A stretch of 35,052 bases of DNA from Phycisphaerae bacterium (GTDB lineage Bacteria > Planctomycetota > Phycisphaerae > UBA1845): positions 1-35,052 of the forward strand of contig JAJDDU010000411.1 of the NCBI GenBank assembly GCA_029260155.1, read 5' to 3'. Of this stretch, positions 595 through 26,354 are shown piece after piece (the stretch's first letter is position 1; each line of letters opens with the position of its first letter). A program made the position numbers and the translations under genes. The notes beneath the pieces were generated by a model, which was not told the DNA's origin, searched no databases, and saw only the letters and a program-made list of their open reading frames with translations.

Positions 595-1332
595 CTAGGC
601 GCGCGAGAGGCCATTCTCCGTCCATGCAACCCGTTCGCCAACCTTGGGGACGATCAGGCGAGTCTTCAATTCCTCGGGTAACGCCTCGCGAAAGGCCTCC
701 GCCGTGCCGTGCAACAGCGGAAACGTCCCGTAGTGAATCGGAACGATGCTGGCGGGCTCGAACATCTGAGCAGCCAAGCTTGCACCGGCTGGACCCATGG
801 TAAAGTGGTCGCCGATCGGAAGTGCTACGATCTTCGGGGCGAACAACTCAGCGATCAGCTTCATGTCGCTGAAGACGTCGGTGTCGCCGGCATGGTAGAA
901 CGGCGCGAGGCCATCCGCATCGACGACAACGCCGCAGGGCATGCCGGCGTATAGCGGCCCGCGATCGGAATCGATGCTCGACGAATGAAAGGCGCGCGTC
1001 AGGGAAAAGGCCACGCCATCTACCGTCTGCGTGCCGCCGATGTTCATGGGCGCGAATCGCGCCTTCGGACTCGTCATGTCAAGCAGCGCGCAGAGCTCGA
1101 CGGAGGCGATGACGTGTGGATTGTATTTCTCGATAAGGCGAGCTGCGTCGCCGGTGTGATCGCCGTGCCCGTGGGTGAGCGCGAGCAGGTCGCAGCGCGG
1201 CGGTTCCTTCAAGTCCGCAGGGCAGGACGGGTTGTCGCGCAACCAGGGGTCGATCAAGACAACGCGCTCATCCGGCAAGGTGAGTCGGATGGTGGCGTGT
1301 CCCAGCCATGTCATGCTTGCGGTGTCGGTCAT
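595..1332 (-). CDS. Metal-dependent hydrolase, metallo-beta-lactamase fold (UPF0173-like)
   Basis: TWLGHA N-terminus, THGHGDH (HxHxDH) metal site, FHSSS, YHAGDTDVFSDM, LPIGDHFTMGP and PIHYGTFP motifs. Confidence 0.9.
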   Translation of the reverse strand: MTDTASMTWLGHATIRLTLPDERVVLIDPWLRDNPSCPADLKEPPRCDLLALTHGHGDHTGDAARLIEKYNPHVIASVELCALLDMTSPKARFAPMNIGGTQTVDGVAFSLTRAFHSSSIDSDRGPLYAGMPCGVVVDADGLAPFYHAGDTDVFSDMKLIAELFAPKIVALPIGDHFTMGPAGASLAAQMFEPASIVPIHYGTFPLLHGTAEAFREALPEELKTRLIVPKVGERVAWTENGLSRA

Positions 1333-1365
1333 GTTGCTCTCCGCAGATGTTCTTCATGCACAGTG

Positions 1366-1599
1366 CTAACGCACTTTCGAGATCGCGCTGATTCTCTCGA
1401 CGATCAGCGTGTGTTCTGGAAACATGCCGGTTTCTTCCTTGCTGTATATCAGATCGCCATCGACTCGGACGTCGAAGATTCCGCCGGATCCCTCGATCAT
1501 CTCAGTTTCGATTCCGATATTGTCCTTGATCGTATCCGCCAGACTGGCGGCATCGGGGTGATAGTTTCACTGCATGCAGTATTCGATGGATACTATCAT
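1366..1599 (-). CDS. Rdx/SelW/SelT-family selenoprotein, 77 aa, CxxU motif (in-frame TGA at 1569-1567)
   Basis: Manual translation: MIVSIEYCMQ-U-NYHPDAASLADTIKDNIGIETEMIEGSGGIFDVRVDGDLIYSKEETGMFPEHTLIVERISAISKVR*. It shows IEYCxxU-Y, GxGGIFDV, GxLIYSK and G.FP Rdx motifs on both sides of the TGA, a GGAG RBS upstream of the ATG, and a hairpin after the TGA. Confidence 0.9.
1531..1555 (-). promoter_or_regulatory. Putative bacterial SECIS element
   Basis: On the coding strand: CG-AT-G-CCGCC-AGTCT-GGCGG-AT-A-CG. The apical loop AGUCU begins 22 nt after the UGA and resembles the E. coli fdhF SECIS loop AGGUCU. Confidence 0.7.
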
Positions 1600-2054
1600 T
1601 CGCAACACTCCAATAAAGAAACGCTCCAGCGCACTGTTTGGCGAATCATATCAGATTTTCGACACGGCGGGTACGGTCGGACGGCACAACATCGCCCTAC
1701 CCGCCGGAATCGGTCATCGATTGTCGGCGTAACGGCCATGTAACATGACGATGCTCACAGGACAGATAATCGGCATTCGCGAGGGCTGATCGGGGGCGAT
1801 GGTGCGTTGCGACCGCATATGAGATTCGATCGTCGAGCGTGTTTGGCGTGTGGTCGAAAAGTAACCTTCTGGTAACCACCCCGCGACGGTCTTGAATCGG
1901 ACCGGGCGCATTCCGTAGTATTTGGACGTCGGTGTGGCAGCGTGTCATGCTGGCGTGTTGTTCAGTTTTGGGATCCCTTGCCTGTCACGGATCGATGCCG
2001 CGTGTGGTAGTCCGGGCAACAGCGACCACGGGAGTATTGGAAAGGCCTTTCACA

Positions 2055-4187
2055 ATGATTCAAAGTTGGTTGTTCTCACGGCGTCGGATGGTTGCGTGTT
2101 TGTCGGCCCTCGTCATCGCGTTTTCGGTCGCGACGGCTGGGGCGCAGACGAAAGGTTCGCGGGTTAACATAAGCCCGTCGTTCGCAACAGAAAAGCCCGC
2201 CGCCGCGCCAGTGGCGCCGACGGGCCCTGCTCCGAAGATCGGCGCCGATACTCCGAAGCACGATTTCGGCGAGATATGGGTGGGCACGAAAGCGACGCAC
2301 ACATTCGTGGTTCGCAATACGGGCGATGCCCTGCTCAAGATCTCTCGCGTCAAGCCGAGTTGCGGATGTACCGTGGCCAAGTTCGATTCCGAAGTCGAGC
2401 CGGGCAAGACCGGCAAGATCGAGGTGACCGTCAATACGGCGAAGCTCAAGTCCAAGATCAACAAGTCGGTCAGCGTCGAGTCCAATGATACCATGAAGCC
2501 GGTGTTCAAGCTGGAAGTAACCGGCACGGTCAAACAACGTTTTCAGATTACGCCGAATCGCGGTGAGAGCTTCGGCCGCATCCGTCCGGACGAAGACCTG
2601 ACACGAACGCTGACGCTCACGAACAACATGGGCACGCCGGTTCAGTTGACGCTTCCGACTCCCAAGGCAGGTGTGTACACGGCTGAGCTTGTTGAGAAGA
2701 CGCCAGGCAACGTCTATGATCTCGTTATCACAGCGAAGCCACCTTACGCGGAGAAGATCAACCGCGGCGCCTACAAGATCAGGACTGACCTTCCCGGCAA
2801 CGTGACGATCGACATCGCGCTTTCAGCCTACGTCCCGCCGCTGGTGGAAGTGACACCGCCGCAGGTGATCATTCCGAAGACTCAGGCCACCGCACGCCAG
2901 CAGAGTGTTCGCGTGAAGTTCAACTCCAAGGAGCCGCATAAGGTCCTGTCCGCCACGACCAATGCGCCCGGTGCACAGGTTGAAATCAAGGAGATCGCGG
3001 AAAGCCATTACGACGTCGTGCTCGGGCTCCCGGCCAACTACTCGCCGCCGACGACAGGTCACAAGCTCACCCTCAAGACCGACGATCCGAAGAACGCGGA
3101 AGTCGAGGTCAAGATTGCGCAGCGGCAGTCCCCGAAGCGGGCGGCGCCGCAGCGCCCGGCGATGCAATTGTCAGGGAAACCTGTTCCCGACGCGACCTTT
3201 GTCCTCGCGAACGGTACGCCGCTCAAGACCAGCGAAATGAAGGACGATGCGACGGTGGTCATGTTCTACGCCAGTTGGTGCGGATTCTGCAAGCGCACCT
3301 TGCCCCAGCTCGAAGCGTACTCGAAGGAATTCAAGGACAAGCCCGTCAAGTTCGTTGCGATCAGCATGGACTCGCTCAAGGAAAACGGCGATACCGGCAA
3401 ACGTGCCCGCTCCAAGCAGCAGGTCGTCGATCAGTTCAAGTCCATGGGTGTGACGATTCCGCAGGCGTTCGACTCCAATAAGGACGGCGGCTCGAAATTC
3501 AAGGTGCAGAGCTTCCCGACGATGTTCTTGTTCGGCAAAACCGGCAAGATCGACCGCGTCTACGTCGGCGGTGCCGCCGCGAGCGACGGGTCGATGAAGA
3601 AAGACATCGAGACGCTGCTTTCTGGAAAGACTCTGGCAGCTCAGTCCCTTGCGCCCGTGAAGCCCAAGAAACGAGAGCGCCCGGCACTCAAGATGGCCGG
3701 CAAGCCCGCGCCGACCGGTACGTTTTCGGCGGCATCCGACGGCTCCACCGTCAGCCTCGCCAGTTCCGATGCCGAGGCAACCGTCGCGTTCTTCTACGCG
3801 AGCTGGTGCGGCTATTGTAAGAAGACTCTTCCCGTCCTGACCGCGATGTCAGCGGAGTACGAGGGCAAGCCGGTTCGCTTCATCGGCGTCAACCAGGACA
3901 CCATCATCGATCAGCCCGACCCCAAGAATCGTCGGGCCAAGACCAAAGACTACGTCATGAAGCAGTGGTCCGATCTCGGCGTCACGTTCCCGCAGATCAT
4001 GGACCCCAACGGCATCGGAAGGAAGGACTTCAAGGTCACCAGCTACCCGACGTACTTCCTGATCGACAAGTCCGGCAAGATTGAAAAAGCCTACGTCGGG
4101 GGCACCGCCGCCGGCAACGGCGCACTCAAGAAGGACATCGACGCGCTCTTGAAAGGCAACGGCGGAAAAGCCAGCGCCGGCAAGTAG
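2055..4187 (+). CDS. Secreted DUF1573 (Ig-like) domain protein with two C-terminal TlpA-like thioredoxin domains
   Basis: ATG 2055 follows GGAAAGG (the ORF track extends to 1932). Signal peptide RRRMVACLSALVIAFSVATAGA. HDFGEI..HTFVVRNTGDALLKISRVKPSCGCT matches DUF1573. Two FYASWCG(F/Y)CK motifs, each with a cis-Pro loop (SFPT, SYPT). Confidence 0.8.
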   Translation: MIQSWLFSRRRMVACLSALVIAFSVATAGAQTKGSRVNISPSFATEKPAAAPVAPTGPAPKIGADTPKHDFGEIWVGTKATHTFVVRNTGDALLKISRVKPSCGCTVAKFDSEVEPGKTGKIEVTVNTAKLKSKINKSVSVESNDTMKPVFKLEVTGTVKQRFQITPNRGESFGRIRPDEDLTRTLTLTNNMGTPVQLTLPTPKAGVYTAELVEKTPGNVYDLVITAKPPYAEKINRGAYKIRTDLPGNVTIDIALSAYVPPLVEVTPPQVIIPKTQATARQQSVRVKFNSKEPHKVLSATTNAPGAQVEIKEIAESHYDVVLGLPANYSPPTTGHKLTLKTDDPKNAEVEVKIAQRQSPKRAAPQRPAMQLSGKPVPDATFVLANGTPLKTSEMKDDATVVMFYASWCGFCKRTLPQLEAYSKEFKDKPVKFVAISMDSLKENGDTGKRARSKQQVVDQFKSMGVTIPQAFDSNKDGGSKFKVQSFPTMFLFGKTGKIDRVYVGGAAASDGSMKKDIETLLSGKTLAAQSLAPVKPKKRERPALKMAGKPAPTGTFSAASDGSTVSLASSDAEATVAFFYASWCGYCKKTLPVLTAMSAEYEGKPVRFIGVNQDTIIDQPDPKNRRAKTKDYVMKQWSDLGVTFPQIMDPNGIGRKDFKVTSYPTYFLIDKSGKIEKAYVGGTAAGNGALKKDIDALLKGNGGKASAGK

Positions 4188-4776: not shown

Positions 4777-5053
4777 TCGTGTCAGAAGCTGAAGCGAGAA
4801 CGAAACTGGGGTCAGAGCGCATTTAGTTGTTAGTTGTCGCCGCGGTAACGAAGCACGCAATCGCGATGCGGGGCCACGTGTTCGACCGGTTGGCCTGCTT
4901 GCCCCGAACGATATTCCTGAATACGACGGCGCACGCTGAGTGTCACCGTCGTGTCTGGCCCGGTGGCCACTGTCGACATTCCGGGTTCCAACAACGCCCC
5001 CTCCCATCGCTGTTACCATCACCCGCTCCGCCTCGCGCCGGGCGACACAATCG

Positions 5054-5082
5054 TTGACACGCGCGGGCGCCCTACCTATAGT
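5054..5082 (+). promoter_or_regulatory. Near-consensus sigma70 promoter of ppdK
   Basis: TTGACA (5054-5059), 17-bp spacer, TATAGT (5077-5082), 48 nt before the GTG start. This supports 5131 rather than 4951 as the start. Confidence 0.75.
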
Positions 5083-5130
5083 GCGCGCGTATCAGACTTG
5101 AGCGACTCGATTGAACGAAAGGTACACACC

Positions 5131-8100
5131 GTGGCGAAAGCACCCAAGTTCGTATTCTTCTTCGGCGCGGGCAAAGCTGAGGGTCAGAACGCAAGCAAAC
5201 TCCTCCTCGGCGGCAAAGGCGCGGGCCTCGCCGAGATGACTCACATTGGTCTGCCCGTGCCCGGCGGCTTCACCATCACCACACAGGCTTGCGCAGAGTT
5301 CATCCGCAGCAACAACAGTTGGCCGCGCGGCCTCGAAGAACAGGTCGACAAGAATCTCAAACGCCTCGAGCGCGTGTGCAACAAGAAACTCGGCGGGGCA
5401 CGCGACCCGCTCTTGATCTCGGTGCGATCCGGGGCAGCCGTCTCCATGCCCGGCATGATGGAGACCATTCTCAACCTCGGGCTTAACGACGAGTCCGTCG
5501 AGGGATTGGCTCGCGTCACCGGCAATCGCCGCTTCGCCTTCGATGCCTACCGGCGTCTCATCATGATGTACGGCACGACCGCCCAAGGGATCGAGCGATC
5601 CCTGTTCGACGACGCCTTCGATCGCATCAAAGAGCACAAGACGCGCTGGCGTCTCGAAGTTCCCCATACCCGAAAGATCGAAGACACCGAGGTCAACGAT
5701 GATGAGCTGGTCGAACTCGTTGCGGCTTACAAGACCATCTACTCGCACGCCACCGGTCAACCCTTCCCACAGGATCCGCTGGCGCAGTTGCGCGGGGCCA
5801 TCAATGCCGTCTTTGGCAGCTGGATGGGCGACAAGGCTGTCACCTATCGCCGCGTTGAGAAGATCAGCGGGCTTGAGGGGACCGCAGTCAACATCTGCCA
5901 GATGGTCTACGGCAACCTCGGCGATGATTCCGGAACCGGCGTCTGCTTCACGCGCGACCCGAGCACGGGCGAGAACGAGTTCTATGGCGACCTGCTGATC
6001 AACGCCCAGGGCGAAGACGTGGTGGCCGGTATCCGTACGCCCCTGCGCGTGGCTGAACTGAGCAGACACATGCCCGAAGCGTGGGACCAGCTTCTGGCGG
6101 TTCGGACCATTTTGGAATCGCACTACCGTGACATGCAGGACCTCGAGTTCACCATCGAACGCGGCACGCTCTACATGCTGCAGTGTCGGACCGGCAAGCG
6201 CTCGCCGGCTGCTGCCTTTCGCATTGCGGTCGAGCACGCGACGATGCCCCTGCTCGGGCGCGTCGAAACCAACCGACTCGTGAAGCGCGGGCACCTCCCG
6301 CGCAAGTACGCCGCGCAGGTCACCAAGCCGATCCTCACCAAGGAGGAGGCCATCGGGCGCATCACGGCTGCGGATGTCGAGAGGCTGTTTTATCCGGTTC
6401 TCGATTCCGATCTGTCGCGTGAAGAGCTCGCGAGTCGTCAGCTTGGTACCGGCATCAACGCGGTCCCCGGAGCGGCTTGTGGCGAAGTTGTCTTCCATCC
6501 AGCCGATGCGGAGCGCCGCGCTGCGGACGGTTCGAGCGTTATCCTGGTCCGCAAGGAGACTTCCCCCGAGGATGTCGGCGGCATGCACGCCTCTAGTGGG
6601 ATCCTCACCGCGACCGGTGGCAAGACCTCCCACGCAGCCGTGGTCGCTCGCGGGTGGGGCAAGTGTTGTATCGTCGGGTGCGATACGTTGAGCGTTGACG
6701 AGCAGCAGAAGACCATGCAGCTCAATGGACGCATGCTACGCGAGGGCGACACCATCACGCTCGACGGATCGACCGGCACGATCTACGACGGGTCCATCCC
6801 GTTGGTCATGCCCACCGCGCCGGACGAGTACAAGACACTGCTTGGTTGGTGTGACGAAACGCGCCGGCTGGCGGTACGCACCAACGCCGACACCCCCGCC
6901 GACGCTCACAAGGCCATCGAACTCGGGGCCGAGGGCATCGGACTCTGCCGCACGGAGCACATGTTCTTTGAGACAGAAGAACGTCGCTTGGCCATGCAAG
7001 AGATGATCGTGGCCGACAACGCCCCGGAACGCCGTCGCGCCCTCGACAAGCTCCAACCGTTCCAGAAGCAGGACTTCCTCGACATCTTCCGGGCCATGGA
7101 CGGCAAGCCCGTCACGATTCGCCTCATCGATCCGCCGCTGCACGAGTTCTTGCCGCACGACGAGGACAGTATCCAACTGCTCGCGCGGTACTCAGGAATC
7201 TCGACCGAACAGATTCGCGCCCGGGCTGAACAGCTTCATGAATCCAATCCCATGCTAGGCCACCGTGGCTGTCGCCTGTGCATCACCTATCCGGAGATTC
7301 TGGAGATGCAGGTCAGCGCCATCATCGAGGCAGCAGTCGAGGCTGTCGGCGAAGGCGTTGAGGTGCTGCCGGAGATCATGATCCCGCTGACGATCGACGC
7401 CAAGGAATTGAACATCCTCACCGATCAAACCCGTGCTGTGGCGGATGCGATCCTGGACAATGCCGGTATCAAGCTCGGGTATCTGGTCGGCACGATGATC
7501 GAAACGCCACGGGCGGCGCTGCTGGCTGATCGCATCGCCGACGTCGCTCGCTTCATCAGCTTCGGCACCAACGACCTTACGCAGACTGCCATGGGCCTGT
7601 CACGCGACGACGCGGGCAGGTTCCTTCCGGCCTATGTCGATCAGGACAAGCACGCCATCTTCGCAGCCGACCCGTTTGACTCGCTGGACGTCGACGGCGT
7701 CGGTCAACTCGTTGCGATGGCTGTCAACGGCGCCCGCGCCGCGCATCCGACGTTCAAGCTCGGCGTCTGCGGCGAGCACGGCGGCGACCCCGACAGCATC
7801 CGTTTCTTCCACGGCATTGGCTTGAACTACGTCTCGTGTAGCCCCCTCCGCGTGCCCATTGCGAGACTAGCCGCTGCCCACGCGGTGTTGGAGGAGCGAT
7901 CTCAACGCCCCGTCAAACGCAAACCCAAGAAAGCGGCTGCGTCGCCGAAGCGGGCGGTAAAGAAGACAGTTAAAGCCAAGAAGAAATCCGCCCCTAAGAA
8001 AGCCAAGAAGAAAGCAGCTGCCAAGAAGGTGCCAAAACAAGCTGCTCCCAAGAAGGCCACGAAGAAGAAGACGGTCAAGTCCGCGAAGCGCAAGGCAGCC

Positions 8101-8181
8101 ACGGCAACAACCAAACGCGTGACCAAGAAGAAGGCAGTCAAGAAGGCCAAAGGCACGAAGAAGAAGTCCAAACGCCGCTGA
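5131..8181 (+). CDS. ppdK: Pyruvate, phosphate dikinase with C-terminal Lys/Ala-rich extension
   Basis: GTG after GAAAGGT. Motifs LLGGKGAGLAEM, SVRSGAAVSMPGMMETILNLGLN, NAQGEDVVAGIRTP, phospho-His GGKTSHAAVVAR, GIGLCRTEHMF, SFGTNDLTQ and GVCGEHGGDP. Confidence 0.97.
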   Translation: MAKAPKFVFFFGAGKAEGQNASKLLLGGKGAGLAEMTHIGLPVPGGFTITTQACAEFIRSNNSWPRGLEEQVDKNLKRLERVCNKKLGGARDPLLISVRSGAAVSMPGMMETILNLGLNDESVEGLARVTGNRRFAFDAYRRLIMMYGTTAQGIERSLFDDAFDRIKEHKTRWRLEVPHTRKIEDTEVNDDELVELVAAYKTIYSHATGQPFPQDPLAQLRGAINAVFGSWMGDKAVTYRRVEKISGLEGTAVNICQMVYGNLGDDSGTGVCFTRDPSTGENEFYGDLLINAQGEDVVAGIRTPLRVAELSRHMPEAWDQLLAVRTILESHYRDMQDLEFTIERGTLYMLQCRTGKRSPAAAFRIAVEHATMPLLGRVETNRLVKRGHLPRKYAAQVTKPILTKEEAIGRITAADVERLFYPVLDSDLSREELASRQLGTGINAVPGAACGEVVFHPADAERRAADGSSVILVRKETSPEDVGGMHASSGILTATGGKTSHAAVVARGWGKCCIVGCDTLSVDEQQKTMQLNGRMLREGDTITLDGSTGTIYDGSIPLVMPTAPDEYKTLLGWCDETRRLAVRTNADTPADAHKAIELGAEGIGLCRTEHMFFETEERRLAMQEMIVADNAPERRRALDKLQPFQKQDFLDIFRAMDGKPVTIRLIDPPLHEFLPHDEDSIQLLARYSGISTEQIRARAEQLHESNPMLGHRGCRLCITYPEILEMQVSAIIEAAVEAVGEGVEVLPEIMIPLTIDAKELNILTDQTRAVADAILDNAGIKLGYLVGTMIETPRAALLADRIADVARFISFGTNDLTQTAMGLSRDDAGRFLPAYVDQDKHAIFAADPFDSLDVDGVGQLVAMAVNGARAAHPTFKLGVCGEHGGDPDSIRFFHGIGLNYVSCSPLRVPIARLAAAHAVLEERSQRPVKRKPKKAAASPKRAVKKTVKAKKKSAPKKAKKKAAAKKVPKQAAPKKATKKKTVKSAKRKAATATTKRVTKKKAVKKAKGTKKKSKRR

Positions 8182-12141: not shown

Positions 12142-12609
12142 GTGAACGTTATAGACGACTTGTTTGAAGACCGTGTCAGTGGGTTGGGGATGAGCGATCC
12201 CGTGATCGTCGCACCGGGCGATACGATCGCGGCGGTCATCGCGCTCATGCAGCGCGAACGCGTGGGGTACGTGGTCGTCATGGAAGGTGATGTCCTCCGT
12301 GGCGTGTTCACCGAGCGCGACGTTCTGAAACACCTGCTCGCCACGGGAGTGCCCAACACCGCGCGCATCGATAGCGTGATGACGCACAAGCCTCAGACGC
12401 TGAGTCTCGCCGAGACCGTATCCGACGTTATTCGCAAAATGCATGAGGGGGGATTTCGCCACCTACCGGTTCTCGATGAGCACGGTAAGGTCGCCGGGAT
12501 CGTGTCGGTCAAGCGTGTTGTGCAGTACCTCGTGGAGCACTTTCCCGAGGCTGTTTACAACTTGCCGCCGGAACCCGCGAGCGTTTTGACGTCGCGTGAA
12601 GGGGGCTAG
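12142..12609 (+). CDS. Stand-alone CBS-pair protein
   Basis: GTG after AAGGAG; GVFTERDVL, VMT, GGFRHLPVLD and GIVSV CBS motifs. Confidence 0.88.
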   Translation: MNVIDDLFEDRVSGLGMSDPVIVAPGDTIAAVIALMQRERVGYVVVMEGDVLRGVFTERDVLKHLLATGVPNTARIDSVMTHKPQTLSLAETVSDVIRKMHEGGFRHLPVLDEHGKVAGIVSVKRVVQYLVEHFPEAVYNLPPEPASVLTSREGG

Positions 12610-12670
12610 CGATTTCGCCACGGCGAATGCCACGACTTTTTTCCACCAACGACGAGGAGCTTTGAGTTTC

Positions 12671-14527
12671 ATGGCCGGACCAACGGCAGCGCAACCAGCC
12701 GGGACAGTCGAGCGATTGGACGGCGTTGTCGTTCGCTTCGCAGGCGACTCCGGCGACGGCATGCAGCTTGCGGGTACGCAACTGACGAATACCTCCGCGA
12801 TCTTCGGAAACGATATCGCGACATTGCCCGACTACCCTGCGGAGATTAGAGCGCCGGCGGGGTCGCTGGCTGGGGTGAGCGGGTTTCAGATCAACCTGAG
12901 TGAGGCCCGCATCCATACGCCCGGCGACGGATGCGACGCGCTGATCGCCATGAACCCCGCAGCTCTCAAGGCCAATCTCGAAGACCTCAACGTGGGCGGC
13001 GTTGTGGTGGTCAATTCGGATGCGTTCACCAAGGGCAATCTCGCCAAGGCCGGTTACGATGAGAACCCGCTTGAGGGCGATTCGCTCGACCGCTACCGCG
13101 TCATCAAGGTGCCGATCGATACATTGACCACCGAAGCGGCCAAAGACACGGGACTGGGCACCAAGGCGATTCTGCGGACGAGGAACTTCTTCGCCCTTGG
13201 CTTCGTCTACTGGATGTACGGCCGGTCCGTGGACACGACCCTTGCCTGGATCGAGTCCAAGTTCAAGAAGGTTCCCGCAGTCGTCGACGCGAATGCCAAA
13301 GCCCTTAAGGCGGGGTACTTCTTCGGCGATACGACCGAGGCGGTTGCGGTCCGCTACGAGATCAGAAAAGCCGACATCGCCGCGGGTACCTATCGCAAGG
13401 TCACGGGCAACGAAGCCGTCGCCATCGGAATGGCCGCCGCCGCACAACGCGCGAACAAGTCGCTATTCTACGCCAGTTATCCGATCACGCCGGCCAGCGA
13501 CATCTTGCACACGCTGTGCCGGTACCAGAGCTACCGCGTCAAGACCTTCCAGGCCGAGGATGAGATTGCGGCGATGGCGGCTGCGATCGGCGCCTCGTTC
13601 GCCGGATCGCTAGGCAGTACGGGCACGAGTGGTCCCGGTCTTTGTCTCAAATCCGAGGCCATCGGCTTGGCAGTCATGACCGAACTTCCTCTCGTGATCG
13701 TCAATGTGCAGCGCGGCGGGCCGAGCACCGGGCTCCCCACGAAGACCGAGCAGTCCGACCTCCTCCAGGCTGCGTTCGGCCGACATGGCGAGTCGCCAGT
13801 GCCCGTACTGGCCGCCGCTACGCCGAGCGATTGCTTCGCCATGACGCTTGAGGCCTACCGGATCGCGATTCGCTACATGACACCCGTCCTGCTCTTGACC
13901 GACGGATACCTCGGCAACGGTGCGGAACCTTGGCGCATTCCCGAAGTCGACTCGCTGCCCGATTTGCGCGTCGAGCATCCCAAAGCCAATGGTTCGGCCT
14001 TTCAGCCGTACGCACGCGACGGCAAGCTGGCGAGACCCTGGGCGATACCGGGAACCAAGGGCTTGCAGCACCGAGTCGGAGGGCTTGAGAAAGCAAACAT
14101 CACCGGGAATGTGTCGCACGACCCGCAGAACCACGAGGACATGATTCGCCTTCGCGCGACCAAGATCGCCGGAATCGCAAACGACATTCCGCTTCAGGAC
14201 GTCGAGGGTCCTGCAGACGCCGAGTTGCTCGTTCTAACTTGGGGGAGCACCTATGGGGCAGTCATCACCGCCGTGCAGCACGCCCAAGCGAAGGGGCTGA
14301 GCGTCGCCTCGGCGCATTTGCGGTATTTGTTCCCCTTCCCCAGGAATCTGCAAGACGTGTTGCGGTCCCACAAGAAGATTCTGATACCCGAAATGAACGG
14401 CGGGCAGCTGCGCTTCATGGTTCAAGGCCAATACCGGGTCGACACCGTCGGGTACAGCAAGACTCAGGGGAAACCGTTTCGAATCGCCGAGATCGAACAG
14501 AAGATTGACGAAGTGCTGAAAGGCTGA
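12671..14527 (+). CDS. korA: 2-oxoacid:ferredoxin oxidoreductase alpha subunit (gamma-alpha fusion)
   Basis: ATG after GAGGAG; RFAGDSGDGMQLAG, PAEIRAPAG, YPITPASDIL, QAEDEIAA and VQRGGPSTGLPTK. Substrate specificity is inferred. Confidence 0.93.
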   Translation: MAGPTAAQPAGTVERLDGVVVRFAGDSGDGMQLAGTQLTNTSAIFGNDIATLPDYPAEIRAPAGSLAGVSGFQINLSEARIHTPGDGCDALIAMNPAALKANLEDLNVGGVVVVNSDAFTKGNLAKAGYDENPLEGDSLDRYRVIKVPIDTLTTEAAKDTGLGTKAILRTRNFFALGFVYWMYGRSVDTTLAWIESKFKKVPAVVDANAKALKAGYFFGDTTEAVAVRYEIRKADIAAGTYRKVTGNEAVAIGMAAAAQRANKSLFYASYPITPASDILHTLCRYQSYRVKTFQAEDEIAAMAAAIGASFAGSLGSTGTSGPGLCLKSEAIGLAVMTELPLVIVNVQRGGPSTGLPTKTEQSDLLQAAFGRHGESPVPVLAAATPSDCFAMTLEAYRIAIRYMTPVLLLTDGYLGNGAEPWRIPEVDSLPDLRVEHPKANGSAFQPYARDGKLARPWAIPGTKGLQHRVGGLEKANITGNVSHDPQNHEDMIRLRATKIAGIANDIPLQDVEGPADAELLVLTWGSTYGAVITAVQHAQAKGLSVASAHLRYLFPFPRNLQDVLRSHKKILIPEMNGGQLRFMVQGQYRVDTVGYSKTQGKPFRIAEIEQKIDEVLKG

Positions 14528-14532
14528 CGACA

Positions 14533-15555
14533 ATGTCCGTCGAAGTGGAAATAGCGAAGCTGACCGCCAAAGACTATGCCAGCGACCAGGACGTACGCTG
14601 GTGTCCGGGGTGCGGGGATTACTCGATTCTTGCCCAGACCAAGAAGGTCATGGCCAAGATCGGAATTCCCAAAGAGAAGTATGTCGTGGTCTCCGGGATC
14701 GGCTGCTCCAGCCGCTTCCCTTACTACATGGACACGTACGGCATCCACAGCATCCACGGCAGGGCACTTGCCATTGCGACGGGGGTGAAGTTGGCCCGCC
14801 CCGACCTGCAGGTCTGGGTTGCCACAGGCGATGGCGACGCGTTGAGCATCGGTGGGAATCATTTCCTGCACGCCATCCGCCGCAACATCGATATCAACAT
14901 CCTCCTGTTCAACAACCGCATCTACGGTCTGACCAAGGGGCAGTATTCGCCGACATCGGAAATGGGCAAGAGGACCAGGTCGTCGCCCAATGGTTCCATC
15001 GACTTCCCGCTCAGGCCGCTGTCCGTTGCCATTGGCGCAGAGGCGTCGTTCGTTGCCCGTACCCACGACGTCAACGTCGCGCACCTTGGCGAGATGATCG
15101 AGCGTGCCACGCAGCACAAGGGAACTTCCTTCGTGGAGATTTACCAGAACTGCAACATCTTCAACAATGGCGCTTTCGATTACGCTACGGGCAAGACCAC
15201 GCGGGACGATACGACCATCGCGCTTGAGCACGGTCGGCCACTCATTTTCGGCAAGGAACGCAAGAAGGGCATCCGCCTCAATGGCCTATCGCCGGAAATC
15301 GTAGACGTGGGCAACGGCATCAAGGACGACGATCTACTGTTCCATGATGAGCGTTCCACGGAGCCGACTCTGGCCTACATGCTCAGCAGAATGTACCACC
15401 CGGAATTCCCGGAACCGATCGGCGTCTTCCGGGCGATCGATCGCCCGTCTTACGATGAAATGCTTGAGGATCAGGTCGAAGCGGCCGTCGCTGCCCAGGG
15501 CGAAGGGACGCTCGAAGGCCTGCTGACCGGCGGCGACACGTGGGTCGTCGAGTAA
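14533..15555 (+). CDS. korB: 2-oxoacid:ferredoxin oxidoreductase beta subunit
   Basis: WCPGCGD, SGIGCSSR and the TPP motif GDGDALSIGGNH...NNRIYGLTKGQ. Confidence 0.93.
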   Translation: MSVEVEIAKLTAKDYASDQDVRWCPGCGDYSILAQTKKVMAKIGIPKEKYVVVSGIGCSSRFPYYMDTYGIHSIHGRALAIATGVKLARPDLQVWVATGDGDALSIGGNHFLHAIRRNIDINILLFNNRIYGLTKGQYSPTSEMGKRTRSSPNGSIDFPLRPLSVAIGAEASFVARTHDVNVAHLGEMIERATQHKGTSFVEIYQNCNIFNNGAFDYATGKTTRDDTTIALEHGRPLIFGKERKKGIRLNGLSPEIVDVGNGIKDDDLLFHDERSTEPTLAYMLSRMYHPEFPEPIGVFRAIDRPSYDEMLEDQVEAAVAAQGEGTLEGLLTGGDTWVVE

Positions 15556-20302: not shown

Positions 20303-23300
20303 TTGGCGAAGGTCGACGGCAGTGTGACGGCCACGCAAGCACCGATTGCCATCATCGGCATGGGGTGCTTGTTTCCGCATGCGCCTTCGTTGCGCGAATA
20401 CTGGAGACTGATCCGCTGGTCTGAGGACGGCGTGACGGACGTTCCCGACACGCACTGGTCGATTGATGACTACTACGACGCCGAAGCGAACGGGCGAGAC
20501 CTGACGTACTGTCGTCGGGGGGCGTTTCTTTCGCCGGTCGATTTTGATCCGATGGAGTTCGGGATTCCGCCGTCCACTCTGGAGGCGACGGACACCGCTC
20601 AGCTTCTGGGGCTAAAGGTTGCGAAATCTGCTCTTGAAGACGCGGGCTACGGTTCGGATCGGGAGTTCGACAGAGGGCGGACCAGCGTCATTCTAGGGGT
20701 GACGGGGACGCTGGAGCTGGTGATTCCGCTGGGGGCACGGATGGGCCATCCGCACTGGCGGCGGGCGATGCTTGAAGCCGGCGTGCCGGCGGACGTGTCG
20801 GAGTCGATCATCGAGCGGATTGCCGAGCAGTACGTACCGTGGCAGGAGAACTCGTTTCCAGGATTGCTGGGCAACGTGGTGGCCGGTCGGATTGCGAATC
20901 GGTTGAATCTCCGCGGCACGAACTGCGTGGTGGATGCAGCCTGTGCAAGTTCTCTGAGTGCCATTCACCTGTCACTTCTGGAGTTGAGCACCGGGCGAAC
21001 GGATATGGTGGTCAGCGGCGGGGTCGACGCGCTGAACGACATCTTCATGTTCATGTGTTTCAGCAAGACGCAGGCACTCTCGCCCACCGGGGACGCGAGG
21101 CCTTTCTCGAAGGACGCCGACGGAACGGTGATCGGCGAGGGGATGGGGATGATCGTGCTCAAGCGTCTGGCGGACGCGGAGCGCGACGGCGATCGGGTCT
21201 ACGCGGTGATTCGCGGCGTGGGCACGAGCAGCGACGGGAAATCCCAGAGCATTTACGCGCCGCGAAGCGAGGGGCAGGCTGAGGCGCTGCGATCGGCGTA
21301 TCGGATCAGCGGGATCGACCCGAGTACGGTGCAGCTGGTAGAAGCGCACGGGACGGGGACGAAAGTCGGTGACGTGGTCGAGTTCGACGCACTGAAGACG
21401 GTTTATCGCGAGTCGCGCGCCGAGGGCAAGTGGTGCGGCGTTGGCTCGGTGAAGTCTCAGATCGGGCATACCAAGGCTGCGTCCGGAGTCGCAGGGATCA
21501 TCAAGACGGCGCTGTCACTTCACCACAAGGTGCTGCCCGCAATGATCAAGGTTGGGGAAGCGAATCCGAATCTAGATGTCGATGCGAGTCCGTTCTACCT
21601 GAGCACGGAGACCAGGCCTTGGGTCGGCAAGCGCCCCGCGACGCGCCGTTCGAGCGTGAGTTCGTTCGGTTTCGGCGGGAGCAACTTCCACGCCGTTCTT
21701 GAAGAGTATGGCGATTGCAAGAGTGAGGTGTCCTGGGACGGGACGGTCACGATCATCGCGTTTTCGGCGGATACGAAAGACGGACTCACAGAGCGGCTGA
21801 GCGAGTGGCGCGCGTTGGTCGGCGAAAAGCCGAAGAATGCGGAGATAGCGTTTCGGGCGCGTGAATCGCGTCGCGGATTTCGCGCAGCAGACGAATACCG
21901 TCTGTTGGTCGTGTGCGAGTCGGGCGACGACCTTGTTAAACTGCTTTCCGGAGCGGCGGACCGACTTCGCTCGACGGACGAGGGAACCGCTTCGTGGAAC
22001 CTGCCGAGTGTCTTTTTCGGTGGTCCGCAGGCGCGTGGGAAGATCGCGTTTCTGTTCCCAGGTCAAGCCAGTCAGTACGTGGGAATGGGGCGCGACTTGG
22101 CGTGCATGTTCCCCGAAGCGCAAGACGCCGTCGCGCAGGCGGACGGCGAGAGCGGGCTGTGCGAGCGGATCTATCCGCATCCGGTTTTCGATAAGGGCGT
22201 ACGTGCGGAACAGCAGGCGAGATTGACGCACACGGAGGTTGCTCAGCCCGCGATCGGAGCGGTGAGCCTGGCGTGCTTGCGTGTTCTGGAGCGGTTCGGA
22301 GTGCGTGCGGATTCGGTGGCCGGCCACAGTTACGGTGAGCTTGTCGCGCTTCGGGCGGCGGGGCGCATCGACGATGCCACGTTGCGACACCTTTCGAGCG
22401 TGCGCGGGCGGTTGATGGCCGAGGGCAGCAGCGAGCCGGGCACAATGTTGGCGGTTCGCGCGCCGCTTAACGATATTGACGCGATGCTGACCGAGGAAGC
22501 ATCGGACGCGGTCCTAGCGCATCGCAACGGACCGAAGCAGGGTATTTTGTCGGGCAGTGTTGCGGCCATCGAGGCAGCCGATGCTGCCAGTGCATCGCGC
22601 GGGTGGCAGACGACGCGGTTGGAAGTGTCGGCTGCGTTTCACAGCCGGTTGATGAGCGCGGCGCGAGATCGATTCCGCACGGCGCTCGATGAGGCGTCCA
22701 TGTCCGAAGGTTCCATCCCCGTGATCGCGAATCGCACAGCCGAGGCGTATCCGGAGTCGCCGGACAGCGTTCGGGATATGCTGGCGGACCAACTCGTCTG
22801 CCCGGTGGATTTCGTGCGGTTGATTGAGAACATGCGGTCCAGCGGCGTTCGGCTGTTTGTCGAAGTCGGTCCGCGAAATGTGCTAAGCGGCTTGGTCCGA
22901 TCGATTCTGGGTGACGGATCCCAGGAGGCGGTGTCAATCGATGCCTCGTGCGGCCGCGCATCGGGTGTCACAGACTTTGCACGCGTGCTGGCGCGACTGG
23001 GCGCGATGGGGCATGCGGTGGATCTCGCAGCCTGGGAGCCCGACGTGGCGGAGCCGCGGCATCCAGCCATGGCGGTGCCGCTCATCGGTGCGAACTATCG
23101 GCCCCCTAAGAAGAAAACGTGCGTCGAGCCGAATCGGTCGTGTAAGGCGATATCGGCTAGTAACAACGGAAAAAACTACGTGAGTACGACGGTCGAAAAC
23201 AACGGCAAGAAGACGGCACCGCATGCTATGCGCGCGACGCAACCCATGGCGGCACCAACGCAAACGCCTGCGGTCGCACCCGGTGTGATGCAGGTCGTCC

Positions 23301-26300
23301 AGGAAGGCCTGCGGGCAATGCAGGCGTTGCAGCAGCAGACAGCCGAGGCGCACCAGCGGTTCCTGCAGGGGCAAGAGCTTGCCCAGCAGACGTTCCAGAA
23401 GGTCTTGGAGCACCAGCAGCGTCTCGTGGAGCATAGCCTGGGCATGCCGGTGAGCGCGCCGGAGAACCTGCCGCCCATCGCGCAAATGCCACGGTATGAC
23501 ACTCCTGTCCCGGCCCCCGCGGCCGTGCAAGCCCCCATCGCTGCTGCGGCGACCAGCGGCGACAACGGCGAGCACCGCACACTCGAAACCGCGCCGAAAG
23601 CGGAAGTGAGCGCGGTGGTGGCTGTGAGCGAATCTGTAGAAACTGTGTCGGCAGCGCAGCCTTCGGGATCGACGGAGCTGGAGACGACGCTTCTTGAGGT
23701 GGTCGCGGAATTGACGGGGTATCCGATCGAAATGCTCGATCCGGACATGGACCTTGAGGCCGACCTGGGAATCGACTCGATCAAGCGTGTTGAGATTCTC
23801 GCTTCGGTGCAGACGCGGCTGCCGGGCTTGGAAGCTGTTAATTCGTCGTACATGGGCAGCCTGCGGACACTTCGCAACATCATTGATTACATGGCCAGCC
23901 CCGAAGGCGAAACGAAAACGGATTCGTCACCCGCGCCGGTCGTCGAGGTCGTGGCCGACAACACGCCGTCCACAAGCGTCGATCGTCGCGTACTGCGTGC
24001 GGTCGATCTTCCCGCCATTGGGAAAGGTGACGGCGTTAGGATAGCCCCGGGTCGCGAGGTTTGGGTGCTTGAAGACGCCAACGGACTCGCCGAGGCGATC
24101 AGTGACAACCTTATGGCACTTGGGACGTTGTCGCGGGTGGTGACGAGCGATGCCGAGGTGGGCCACAACGGTGATGCGGCCGTTGGCGGCTTGATTATCG
24201 TGGCGTCCCCCGGCGGCATTTGGGACGAGAATTCGGAAAAGGCGTTGAAAGACGCTTTCAGCCTGACGCAGCGCGTGGGCACGCTTCTTCGCGATGCCGC
24301 GAATGAGGGCGGATCGCTGTTTGCGACGGTGTCGCGGATGGACGGTGCGTTCGGGCTTGTCGGCGGAGAATTCGATCCGGTGCAGGGCGGCTTGGCCGGT
24401 CTGGCAAAGACTGTCTCGCACGAGTGGGCCGGCGTTCGCACGAAGGCACTGGATGTGTCCGCCGGGTGGACCGATCACGCGAAGGCGGCTGATGCCGTCG
24501 TACGTGAGCTGTCGGTTGATGGCCCGATCGAGGTCGGGCTGGACTCTCGCGCGCGTCGCGGGTTGGCGTTGGTCTCGGAACCTGTCAGCGATGCTGAATG
24601 GCGGCCGGAAGCGGGTCAGGCGATCGTGATCTCCGGTGGCGCTCGCGGCGTGACAGCCGAGGTTGCCCACGCGCTCGCCATGCACAACAACCCGATTTTG
24701 GTGCTGCTGGGTCGATCGCCTTCGCCGGAAGATGAGCCGGCGTGGCTGAAAGACGTTTCGGAAGAAGCGGAGATCAAGCGTGCGATCATGGCGCACGGGT
24801 TTGACGCGGCTGCGAAACCGACGCCCGTTCAGTTGGAAGAGGCGTATGGCCGATGCGTAGCGGATCGCGAGATTCGTGCGACGGTTGCTCGACTTGAGCT
24901 TGCGGGCGCTAAGGTGATCTACCGTTCGGTGGATGTGCGTGATGCTGCGGCGGTGGCTGAGGTGATCGCGAAAGCGAGGAAGATCGCCGGTCCGATTGGC
25001 TCGCTCATTCACGGAGCGGGTGTGATTGAAGACCGTTGGATCGCGGACAAGAAAGCCGCACAGTTCGAGCGCGTGTTTGACACCAAGGTGGCTGGCCTGC
25101 GGAATCTGCTCGACGCGATTGGTGACGACAATCTGAAGTCTCTGGTGTTGTTCTCTTCGGTGAGCGGTCGTTTCGGGCGGCAGGGGCAGGTCGACTACGC
25201 GATGGCCAATGAGGTATTGAACAAGGTCGCGCACGCCCAAGCCCGATTGCGGCCTGACTGCCGGGTGGTTTCGATCAACTGGGGACCGTGGGAAGGGGGC
25301 ATGGTCACACCGGGTCTTAGGAAGGAATTTGCGCGGATCGGCGTGGGGCTGGTACCGCTGAAGGAGGGAGCTGAGAGCCTTGTTGCAGAGTTGTCGCAGG
25401 TTGGCGGCGACGTCGAGGTCATGATCGGTTGCGAACTCCCTTCGTCTGAGCCCATGTCGCAACCGGCCGCTACGGAACTATCGCCCGCGTTCAAGCGCCT
25501 GCTCGATATCGACCGTCATCCGTTTCTTCGATCGCATGTGATCGGGGGGCATCCGGTTCTTCCGGTGGCGGTGATTCTGGAGTGGCTTGGTCACGGTGCG
25601 TTGCATGACAACCCGGGGCTGCTGCTGCATGGGTTCGAGGACTTCCGGGTACTCAAGGGTGTGGTGCTGACCAACGGGCCGGCTGATCTGCGTGTGACGG
25701 CTTCGAAGGCGAGACGAAACGGATCGCTGTTTGAGGTTGACGTTGAACTGCGTGGCCACGCGTCGAACGGCCGTGAGACGCCGCACGCGCGTGCCCGGGC
25801 CATCCTCGCTACGGCGTTGCCGGCACCGCCGACATTCAGCCCGCCCGAGGAAATCGGCTGTCGCACATACGCCCGCGGTGTCGAGGGTGCGTACAATGAA
25901 GTGCTGTTCCACGGTCCCGGTTTTCAAGGGATTGAACGGGTTGCAGGTTACTCAGCCGAGGGGATGGTCGCGTACGTGCGTTCGGCGGCGGGGCCGTCGG
26001 ATTGGATGAGCGAGCCCGTGCGTAGCGCGTGGCTTGGCGATCCACTGGTGGTGGATGCCGGGTTGCAGATCGGAATCTTGTGGTGTCACGAGGAGTTGGG
26101 CGCGGTTTCGCTTCCGAGTTCCGGCGCGGGATACTATCAGTATCGGCCGTCTTTCCCGGAGATTGGGGTCAGCGCGGTCTTGGAAATCCGTTCGGCGAAT
26201 GAGACACAGATGACGGCCGACGTCACGTTTCTTGACGAAGCCGGCATCGTGGTCGCACAGATGAGAGGCTTCTCGTGGACGGTGGACGCGTCTTTGCAGG

Positions 26301-26344
26301 CTGCGTTCGGGCGTGAAGCGGTGGCCGGCGCTCAGTCGTCATAG
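20303..26344 (+). CDS. pfaA: PfaA-like iterative PKS: KS-MAT-ACP(x1)-KR-DH
   Basis: TTG after AAGGAG. KS DAACASS/EAHGTGT/IGHTK; MAT GHSYG/AFHS; one ACP (LEADLGIDSIKRVEIL, ~23678-23893); KR GGARGVT/FSSVSGRFGRQGQVDYAMAN; DH FLRSHVIGGHPVLP...DAGLQ. Confidence 0.92.
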   Translation: MAKVDGSVTATQAPIAIIGMGCLFPHAPSLREYWRLIRWSEDGVTDVPDTHWSIDDYYDAEANGRDLTYCRRGAFLSPVDFDPMEFGIPPSTLEATDTAQLLGLKVAKSALEDAGYGSDREFDRGRTSVILGVTGTLELVIPLGARMGHPHWRRAMLEAGVPADVSESIIERIAEQYVPWQENSFPGLLGNVVAGRIANRLNLRGTNCVVDAACASSLSAIHLSLLELSTGRTDMVVSGGVDALNDIFMFMCFSKTQALSPTGDARPFSKDADGTVIGEGMGMIVLKRLADAERDGDRVYAVIRGVGTSSDGKSQSIYAPRSEGQAEALRSAYRISGIDPSTVQLVEAHGTGTKVGDVVEFDALKTVYRESRAEGKWCGVGSVKSQIGHTKAASGVAGIIKTALSLHHKVLPAMIKVGEANPNLDVDASPFYLSTETRPWVGKRPATRRSSVSSFGFGGSNFHAVLEEYGDCKSEVSWDGTVTIIAFSADTKDGLTERLSEWRALVGEKPKNAEIAFRARESRRGFRAADEYRLLVVCESGDDLVKLLSGAADRLRSTDEGTASWNLPSVFFGGPQARGKIAFLFPGQASQYVGMGRDLACMFPEAQDAVAQADGESGLCERIYPHPVFDKGVRAEQQARLTHTEVAQPAIGAVSLACLRVLERFGVRADSVAGHSYGELVALRAAGRIDDATLRHLSSVRGRLMAEGSSEPGTMLAVRAPLNDIDAMLTEEASDAVLAHRNGPKQGILSGSVAAIEAADAASASRGWQTTRLEVSAAFHSRLMSAARDRFRTALDEASMSEGSIPVIANRTAEAYPESPDSVRDMLADQLVCPVDFVRLIENMRSSGVRLFVEVGPRNVLSGLVRSILGDGSQEAVSIDASCGRASGVTDFARVLARLGAMGHAVDLAAWEPDVAEPRHPAMAVPLIGANYRPPKKKTCVEPNRSCKAISASNNGKNYVSTTVENNGKKTAPHAMRATQPMAAPTQTPAVAPGVMQVVQEGLRAMQALQQQTAEAHQRFLQGQELAQQTFQKVLEHQQRLVEHSLGMPVSAPENLPPIAQMPRYDTPVPAPAAVQAPIAAAATSGDNGEHRTLETAPKAEVSAVVAVSESVETVSAAQPSGSTELETTLLEVVAELTGYPIEMLDPDMDLEADLGIDSIKRVEILASVQTRLPGLEAVNSSYMGSLRTLRNIIDYMASPEGETKTDSSPAPVVEVVADNTPSTSVDRRVLRAVDLPAIGKGDGVRIAPGREVWVLEDANGLAEAISDNLMALGTLSRVVTSDAEVGHNGDAAVGGLIIVASPGGIWDENSEKALKDAFSLTQRVGTLLRDAANEGGSLFATVSRMDGAFGLVGGEFDPVQGGLAGLAKTVSHEWAGVRTKALDVSAGWTDHAKAADAVVRELSVDGPIEVGLDSRARRGLALVSEPVSDAEWRPEAGQAIVISGGARGVTAEVAHALAMHNNPILVLLGRSPSPEDEPAWLKDVSEEAEIKRAIMAHGFDAAAKPTPVQLEEAYGRCVADREIRATVARLELAGAKVIYRSVDVRDAAAVAEVIAKARKIAGPIGSLIHGAGVIEDRWIADKKAAQFERVFDTKVAGLRNLLDAIGDDNLKSLVLFSSVSGRFGRQGQVDYAMANEVLNKVAHAQARLRPDCRVVSINWGPWEGGMVTPGLRKEFARIGVGLVPLKEGAESLVAELSQVGGDVEVMIGCELPSSEPMSQPAATELSPAFKRLLDIDRHPFLRSHVIGGHPVLPVAVILEWLGHGALHDNPGLLLHGFEDFRVLKGVVLTNGPADLRVTASKARRNGSLFEVDVELRGHASNGRETPHARARAILATALPAPPTFSPPEEIGCRTYARGVEGAYNEVLFHGPGFQGIERVAGYSAEGMVAYVRSAAGPSDWMSEPVRSAWLGDPLVVDAGLQIGILWCHEELGAVSLPSSGAGYYQYRPSFPEIGVSAVLEIRSANETQMTADVTFLDEAGIVVAQMRGFSWTVDASLQAAFGREAVAGAQSS

Positions 26345-26354
26345 GTGAAGATCG

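Follow-up and report, generated by a model that had tools for sequence, protein, structure and literature searches.

The window (the whole stretch of 35,052 nucleotides that was analysed) carries, at 1366..1599 on the minus strand, a complete gene of the SelW-like (Rdx) family that is predicted to encode a selenoprotein and that comprises 77 codons plus a TAG stop (1366-1368, minus strand) when translated with TGA read as selenocysteine (U). The reading frame opens with an ATG at 1597..1599 (minus strand), preceded across an 8-nt spacer by a GGAG motif (1608..1611, minus strand) that, as the sequence reads, would serve as ribosome-binding site. The residues MIVSIEYCMQ lead up to an in-frame TGA, which lies ten codons beyond the start as codon 11 (1567..1569, minus strand), and 66 open codons then follow until the TAG. 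The TGC codon of Cys8, the first residue of the CxxU motif, is located at 1576..1578 (minus strand), and the TGA=U translation of 1599..1366 contains the segments GSGGIFDV, LIYSK and GMFP. Downstream of the TGA, a SECIS-like hairpin (CCGCCA-GUC-UGGCGG; 1536..1550, minus strand) is formed by a 6-bp stem and a GUC loop whose G and U occupy positions 1544 and 1543. An initial annotation had listed the minus-strand ATG with its ribosome-binding site, the segment IEYCMQ-TGA-NY, the 66 open codons, the three Rdx motifs and a stem-loop just downstream of the TGA, and all of these were found where it had placed them, the stem-loop at 1550-1536, 16 nt after the UGA. It had also named reads with TGC or TGT at 1567-1569 as a finding that would speak against recoding; in one study, two public runs gave contigs that showed TGA, with letters identical to those of the window at these positions, at a low depth (~3), and since the assembly may itself derive from these runs, the match excludes a slip in this assembly only.

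Standard ORF calling gave a 44-aa ORF (1366..1500, minus strand) instead of the full gene, and a search of a collection of 5.8 billion protein sequences returned as its sole protein a 44-aa C-terminal fragment, originating from this contig. The gene had been expected to be discarded by standard annotation or treated as a pseudogene; instead, its piece 1500..1366 was called as a protein. Annotation pipelines commonly truncate or miss selenoprotein genes (PMC13188914, a 2026 review), and many of the related genomes with an in-frame TGA homolog probably likewise hold only stumps. The lack of the full SelW-like gene in the 5.8-billion-protein collection is a practical point of annotation; correct annotation adds a predicted redox-active selenoprotein and marks the genomes as selenium users. 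On the opposite strand, a 252-aa frame at 985-1743 (plus strand) runs antisense to selW and to the adjoining MBL hydrolase gene and has no Pfam match; it is a shadow ORF in a genome with 62% GC, and it could mislead a length-based gene caller.

The read-through protein was matched by the Pfam Rdx profile (PF10262) with 67.3 bits (cut-off 22.6, E 1.4e-18) over residues 3-71 and profile positions 2-73 of 74, and by TIGR02174 (CXXU_selWTH; SelT/SelW/SelH) with 58.1 bits (cut-off 34.2); with the narrower NCBIfam equivalog NF041051 its score of 85 lay below the cut-off of 88. The alignment to Rdx ran end to end, and the TGA position fell, as had been predicted for a TGA read as U, on the second Cys of CxxC in solved Rdx proteins. 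The best sequence matches among solved structures were MIEN1 (2ljk, E 3.5e-9), SAV_2001 (3dex) and Atu0228 (2fa8), and in the printed alignments C8 and position 11 fell on both Cys residues of the CxxC motifs of 2ljk and 3dex; the TGA position likewise aligned to the second Cys in CxxC homologs. A model computed with AF2 from 48 homologs as input (mean pLDDT 90.3) consisted of beta1 (3-8), the CxxU turn, alpha1 (14-28), beta2-4 and a C-terminal alpha2, with C8-M-Q-U11 situated between beta1 and alpha1, and this thioredoxin-like beta-alpha-beta-beta-beta-alpha arrangement is common to solved SelW-related proteins (AF2 and Foldseek). The top Foldseek matches were the SelW-related structures 2fa8, 2ojl, 2obk and 3dex (TMq 0.81-0.89; TM 0.84-0.89 for the highest-ranking hits), and all 22 matches at E <= 0.001 were chains of 2fa8, 2ojl, 2obk, 3dex, 2oka, 2p0g and 2ljk; mouse SelW (2npb) was found with TMq 0.71 and E 2e-3, and thioredoxins ranked lower. 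Membership in the Rdx/SelW-SelT-SelH group is thus carried by profile scores above cut-off, by the placement of the CxxU motif and by the fold, and 1599..1366 (minus strand) encodes a 77-residue SelW-like Rdx protein of thioredoxin fold with the predicted active site Cys8-Met-Gln-Sec11.

Conservation of the in-frame TGA was followed in several samples. Among 41 related genomes, 32 contained a homolog and all 32 homologs had one in-frame TGA, and the Sec form was present in each of the 24 sampled genomes of the same family. Across the phylum, 122 of 301 sampled genomes gave a match, with an in-frame TGA in 128 of the 137 match rows and none in the other 9 (rows were counted by hand, and the position of the TGA was checked only in fetched loci). 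From the 41-genome search and the phylum-wide search, 49 loci (48 distinct sequences) were taken for alignment; in every one of the 49 the codon matching codon 11 was a TGA and followed a TGY Cys codon at a distance of three codons, and 45 had an ATG or GTG exactly ten codons 5' of the TGA, at the place of the start codon in the window. C8 and position 11 were invariant across the 48 aligned homologs, and protein identity to the window copy ranged from 69% down to 39%, with conservation on both flanks of the TGA. A scan of named genomes, in which the window protein served as single query, found the closest relatives in MAGs of Phycisphaerae/Phycisphaeraceae and the gene also in Gammaproteobacteria, Myxococcales, Acidobacteriota and Desulfobulbaceae; 24 of the 26 named loci, which came from several phyla, had the codon-11 TGA, and the other 2 had CxxC. 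On these comparisons, the in-frame TGA is read as a functional codon rather than a lesion.

The nine phylum homologs without TGA carried Cys (4), Gly (4) or Ala (1) at the position, and Cys forms are rare, with four CxxC proteins among the 137 phylum matches. In four of these Rdx homologs (L096, L097, L101 and L102) C-x-x-G replaces CxxU/CxxC, and in another (L100) S-x-x-A stands in place of the redox motif; the CxxG and SxxA proteins are paralogs in which the second redox residue, or both, has been lost.

The 15-nt hairpin (1550-1536, minus strand) begins 16 nt 3' of the UGA and, folded in isolation, reached -8.6 kcal/mol (z -3.71), a value equalled in 0 of 200 shuffles. The bSECIS consensus, taken from the legend of Fig 2 of PMC13188914, was compared with the folded hairpin: the apical loop has 3 nt (GUC; 3-9 nt required), the upper stem 6 bp (4-16 bp), the required loop G is in the first position (first two positions allowed), the distance from UGA to loop is 22 nt (16-37 nt) and the MFE of -8.6 kcal/mol lies under the limit of -7.5 kcal/mol. 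Standard pairs filled 95.1% of the pair cells in the alignment of 49 sequences, 48 of them distinct, a share that fell to 19-56% when the arms were slid by 1-3 columns, and the covariation score was 0.260 against 0.137 in shuffles and was equalled by 0 of 500 shuffles; as the aligned sequences are related, these shuffle counts overstate the significance. The most informative pair, 30-42, joins the third positions of two Ala codons and occurred as CG in 37 sequences, GC in 6, UA in 3, GU in 1 and UG in 1, with no sequence unpaired. The compensatory changes fall on synonymous sites, and RNAalifold independently recovered five of the six pairs. The bacterial SECIS check proposed at the outset thus gave values within the published ranges together with covariation.

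Third positions in the hairpin codons 18-20 had an entropy of 0.15-0.25 bits, compared with 1.80 bits at the codon of the invariant Pro15 and ~1.8 bits in flanking codons. Codon 18 varies between A, V, T and S, yet its C was kept in 47 of 48 sequences; the first loop base is an invariant G and the base after it is T in at least 90% of the sequences. The arms encode the conserved A-A-S-L-A at the start of helix alpha1, so the conservation is partly at the level of the protein, and the locus is a clean example of a double constraint in which an RNA stem holds five codons at their synonymous sites. All nine phylum homologs without TGA, which served as negative control, retained only 2-4 of the 6 pairs in the hairpin register, that is, the hairpin was absent. 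A near-identical 15-nt hairpin recurred in Planctomycetota, Gammaproteobacteria, Myxococcota, Acidobacteriota and Desulfobacterota. The central pair 31-41 was unpaired in 10 of the 48 distinct sequences. Longer folds 3' of the UGA were no better than shuffles (66 nt, z -1.26; 70 nt, z -0.71), so a long lower stem is unsupported and the short hairpin alone is distinct from them; a search of 1200-1800 against Rfam gave no match, even at E 10. In one Actinomycetes MAG (L094), a SelW-like gene has the codon-11 TGA, and the usual 15-nt hairpin sequence is missing from the usual place; this gene may rely on a different SECIS.

The genome of the window (594 contigs, 87% complete; G000) was searched for the selenocysteine machinery, and selA, selB, selC and selD, the genes that the initial annotation had proposed to look for, were all present, selD being cut by a contig end. 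Profile search of the contigs gave selA with 474 bits and selB with 362 bits summed, selB lying immediately upstream of selA on one contig (G000:C218:1124-4368, plus strand), and selD with 293 bits at the end of contig C118; the SECIS-binding SelB wing domain (PF09107) was matched with 71 bits. The tRNA-Sec gene (selC) was found on contig C55 with 68.1 bits by Rfam and was called tRNA-SeC(tca) by ARAGORN. In the set of 41 relatives, 32 genomes carry the TGA gene and 31 of these also have the SelB wing domain; the domain is missing from 6 genomes, 5 of which lack the TGA gene as well. The exception (G004; 90% complete, 480 contigs) has the TGA gene and no SelB wing match.

Other candidate selenoproteins were noted in the same genome. 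An ORF of the Redoxin family at G000:C313:4711-5187 (plus strand; PF08534, 91.2 bits) has an in-frame TGA at 4879 within W-G-S-Q-U-P-P-C and a 7-bp hairpin with GGC loop that begins 13 nt after the TGA, and it is probably a second selenoprotein, a thiol:disulfide oxidoreductase. A Redoxin/Prx-like ORF at G000:C465:522-1457 (plus strand; 37.7 bits), whose in-frame TGA at 1137 lies within H-W-U-P-F-C and is followed by a 7-bp hairpin with GUU loop, probably represents a third. With two Redoxin-family UxxC genes containing TGA, each with a hairpin, the organism appears to possess a small selenoproteome. A crude screen of the genome for CxxU/UxxC sites with TGA gave 2279 raw and 138 filtered candidates, of which the two reported here are those also matched by the Redoxin search, and searches of the genome for Molybdopterin (FdhA-type) and CMD/AhpD proteins found no in-frame TGA.

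The surroundings of selW were compared over flanks of ~1.5 kb per locus in the 49 loci. The downstream neighbour in the window is an MBL-fold hydrolase gene (595..1332, minus strand; Pfam Lactamase_B_2, 72 bits) that starts 34 nt after the selW stop and is possibly co-transcribed with selW; it follows the selW homolog in 9 of the 49 loci, and these 9 all belong to the same family or order. Divergent from selW across a 332-nt gap lies a gene for a 751-aa protein (1932-4187, plus strand) that combines a DUF1573 Ig-like domain with two domains of redoxin/thioredoxin-like type, whose motifs WCGFC and WCGYC are both Cys forms, and this gene adjoins selW in 2 of the 49 loci, namely the window and a relative of the same genus (L022). 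A CysE-like ORF is near the selW homolog in 5 of the 49. The neighbourhood was considered as a functional link and rejected as too patchy (9/49, 2/49 and 5/49); being poorly conserved, it gives no clue to the substrate of the SelW-like protein. A scan of 500-2100 for promoters and terminators found no promoter-like site and one terminator-like site on the plus strand, both results being at chance level. Among the public runs listed as containing the stretch, none was an RNA run. Elsewhere in the window, a pyruvate phosphate dikinase-like gene (4951-8181, plus strand) and a two-gene 2-oxoacid:ferredoxin oxidoreductase (12596-15555, plus strand) were noted, as were two very large genes at 20303-33161 (plus strand; 2013 and 2268 aa) with KS, AT, ACP, KR, DH and FabA-like domains, which in their domain content resemble a synthase of the polyunsaturated-fatty-acid type.

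These results establish the structure of the gene, its assignment to the family, the conserved TGA, the covariation of the hairpin and the presence of the Sec machinery, and the reading preferred here, with a probability of roughly 0.94, is that the gene encodes a genuine SelW-like selenoprotein in which UGA codon 11 would be recoded as Sec by means of the hairpin. That the organism recodes UGA as selenocysteine, as initially proposed, is supported by the family, the SECIS-like element, the machinery and the conserved TGA. According to this reading, the hairpin 1550-1536, 16 nt beyond the UGA, would form in the mRNA and would offer its conserved apical-loop G-U to the C-terminal winged-helix domains of SelB; the complex of SelB, GTP and Sec-tRNA(Sec) would thereby be kept at the ribosome, and the UGA would be decoded as selenocysteine without termination. 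The product would be a small thiol/selenol oxidoreductase cycling between the Cys-SH/Sec-SeH form and a selenenylsulfide. For Sec insertion, SelB binding and redox chemistry, the scheme draws on established knowledge of the pathway and of the family, as set out in the reviews PMC8659212 and PMC13188914 and in the redox argument on CXXU made in PMC1088965.

Three other explanations were weighed. Were the UGA to terminate translation, the product would be the 44-aa ORF (starting at ATG 1500), which is what the gene caller reports, or a 10-aa leader, and the hairpin would have a regulatory or pausing function rather than that of a SECIS; in the aligned homologs, however, both codons 1-10 and codons 12-33 show conservation at the protein level, C8, P15 and A17 being invariant, the 44-aa piece would be devoid of beta1, the active site and alpha1 of the AF2 model, and more than half of the homologs replace the Met that starts the 44-aa ORF by Leu or a small number of other residues, so termination at codon 11 was regarded as very improbable. 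UGA stop-codon reassignment occurs in some bacteria, and the codon might be read as Trp, Cys or Gly with no use of selenium, whether through near-cognate or suppressor decoding or through a reassignment of UGA across the genome, a possibility for which the Gly found in 4 of the 9 homologs without TGA could be cited. TGA closes 11 of the 20 large ORFs in the ORF list of the window, however, as well as 21 of the 49 homologs, and is therefore a normal stop codon that has not been reassigned here; the position aligns to a redox Cys, a dedicated tRNA-Sec, selA, selB and selD are present, the TGA gene co-occurs with the SelB wing domain, and the incorporation of an ordinary residue was accordingly given very little credence. 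Decay of a CxxC Rdx protein into a pseudogene, its second Cys codon (TGC/TGT) mutated to TGA, would take one base change in a phylum where CxxC homologs occur (4 of the 9 matches without TGA), and it was dismissed as next to impossible in view of a TGA at the same codon in 49/49 loci of 39-69% identity with open and conserved flanks, homologs too divergent to be assembly copies of one sequence, a covarying hairpin and a genome equipped with the Sec machinery.

With recoding of codon 11 as Sec kept as the preferred reading, a further proposal concerns the lineage as a whole: the SelW-like gene may be strictly selenium-dependent there, and the gene with its embedded SECIS may have been kept, or moved between phyla, as a unit. 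The proposal derives from the Sec forms in 24 of 24 genomes of the family, the rarity of Cys forms and the recurrence of the hairpin across phyla, and it is put forward tentatively, as a rather doubtful possibility. If it were true, the gene would be a candidate core selenoprotein that helps to retain the Sec trait in Phycisphaerae.

The predicted protein and its RNA element were finally compared with known systems. Like mammalian SelW (2npb) and MIEN1 (2ljk), the window protein has the Rdx thioredoxin-like fold with CxxU/CxxC between beta1 and alpha1, whereas its sequence is only 22-33% identical to theirs. In eukaryotes the SECIS is situated in the 3' UTR and acts with SBP2 and eEFSec (PMC1802603), whereas the element in the window is inside the coding region just after the UGA. 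The Cys-form SelW-related proteins 2fa8 (Atu0228), 3dex (SAV_2001), 2ojl, 2obk, 2oka and 2p0g superimpose on the model with TMq 0.80-0.89 and rmsd 1.1-2.7, and their CxxC aligns with C8 and U11 of the window protein; they differ in having Cys for Sec, a length of ~100 residues and R-W after the motif where the window protein has N-Y. CxxC homologs in the phylum of the window also differ from the window gene in being without the hairpin. The SECIS of E. coli fdhF, the standard of reference for bacterial Sec insertion, is a coding-region stem-loop soon after the UGA with an apical-loop G-U required by SelB (PMC8659212), and the hairpin of the window likewise follows the UGA within the coding region and carries a G-U in the apical loop. 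The minimal fdhF element, which contains a bulged U, begins 11 nt after the UGA (PMC8659212), whereas the stem in the window begins 16 nt after the UGA and consists of 6 uninterrupted pairs with no conserved bulge.

A literature search for Phycisphaerae and selenocysteine found, as judged by titles, no paper on selenoproteins of the class, which surveys in subscription journals may cover, and for two isolates of Planctomycetes the candidate selenoproteins of Table S9 include no SelW-like entry (PMC4807772). Descriptions of SelW-like CxxU selenoproteins in bacteria go back to 2005, when they were reported from the Sargasso Sea (PMC1088965), and they occur also in several sequenced bacteria (PMC1794560). 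Among the bacterial selenoprotein families of marine metagenomes, theirs is the most abundant (PMC1088965, PMC2398784), and the GOS data contained 427 Sec and 56 Cys SelW-like forms (PMC2398784). The window gene resembles these in its family by HMM, its N-terminal CxxU, its small size, its in-frame UGA followed by a coding-region hairpin with a loop G, and the predominance of Sec over Cys forms, and there is no difference in kind, the window copy coming from a Phycisphaerae-like MAG. Family, motif and recoding mechanism have long been established and no new question is opened by the locus; as SelW-like CxxU proteins are long known and abundant, the window gene is a further member of a known family.
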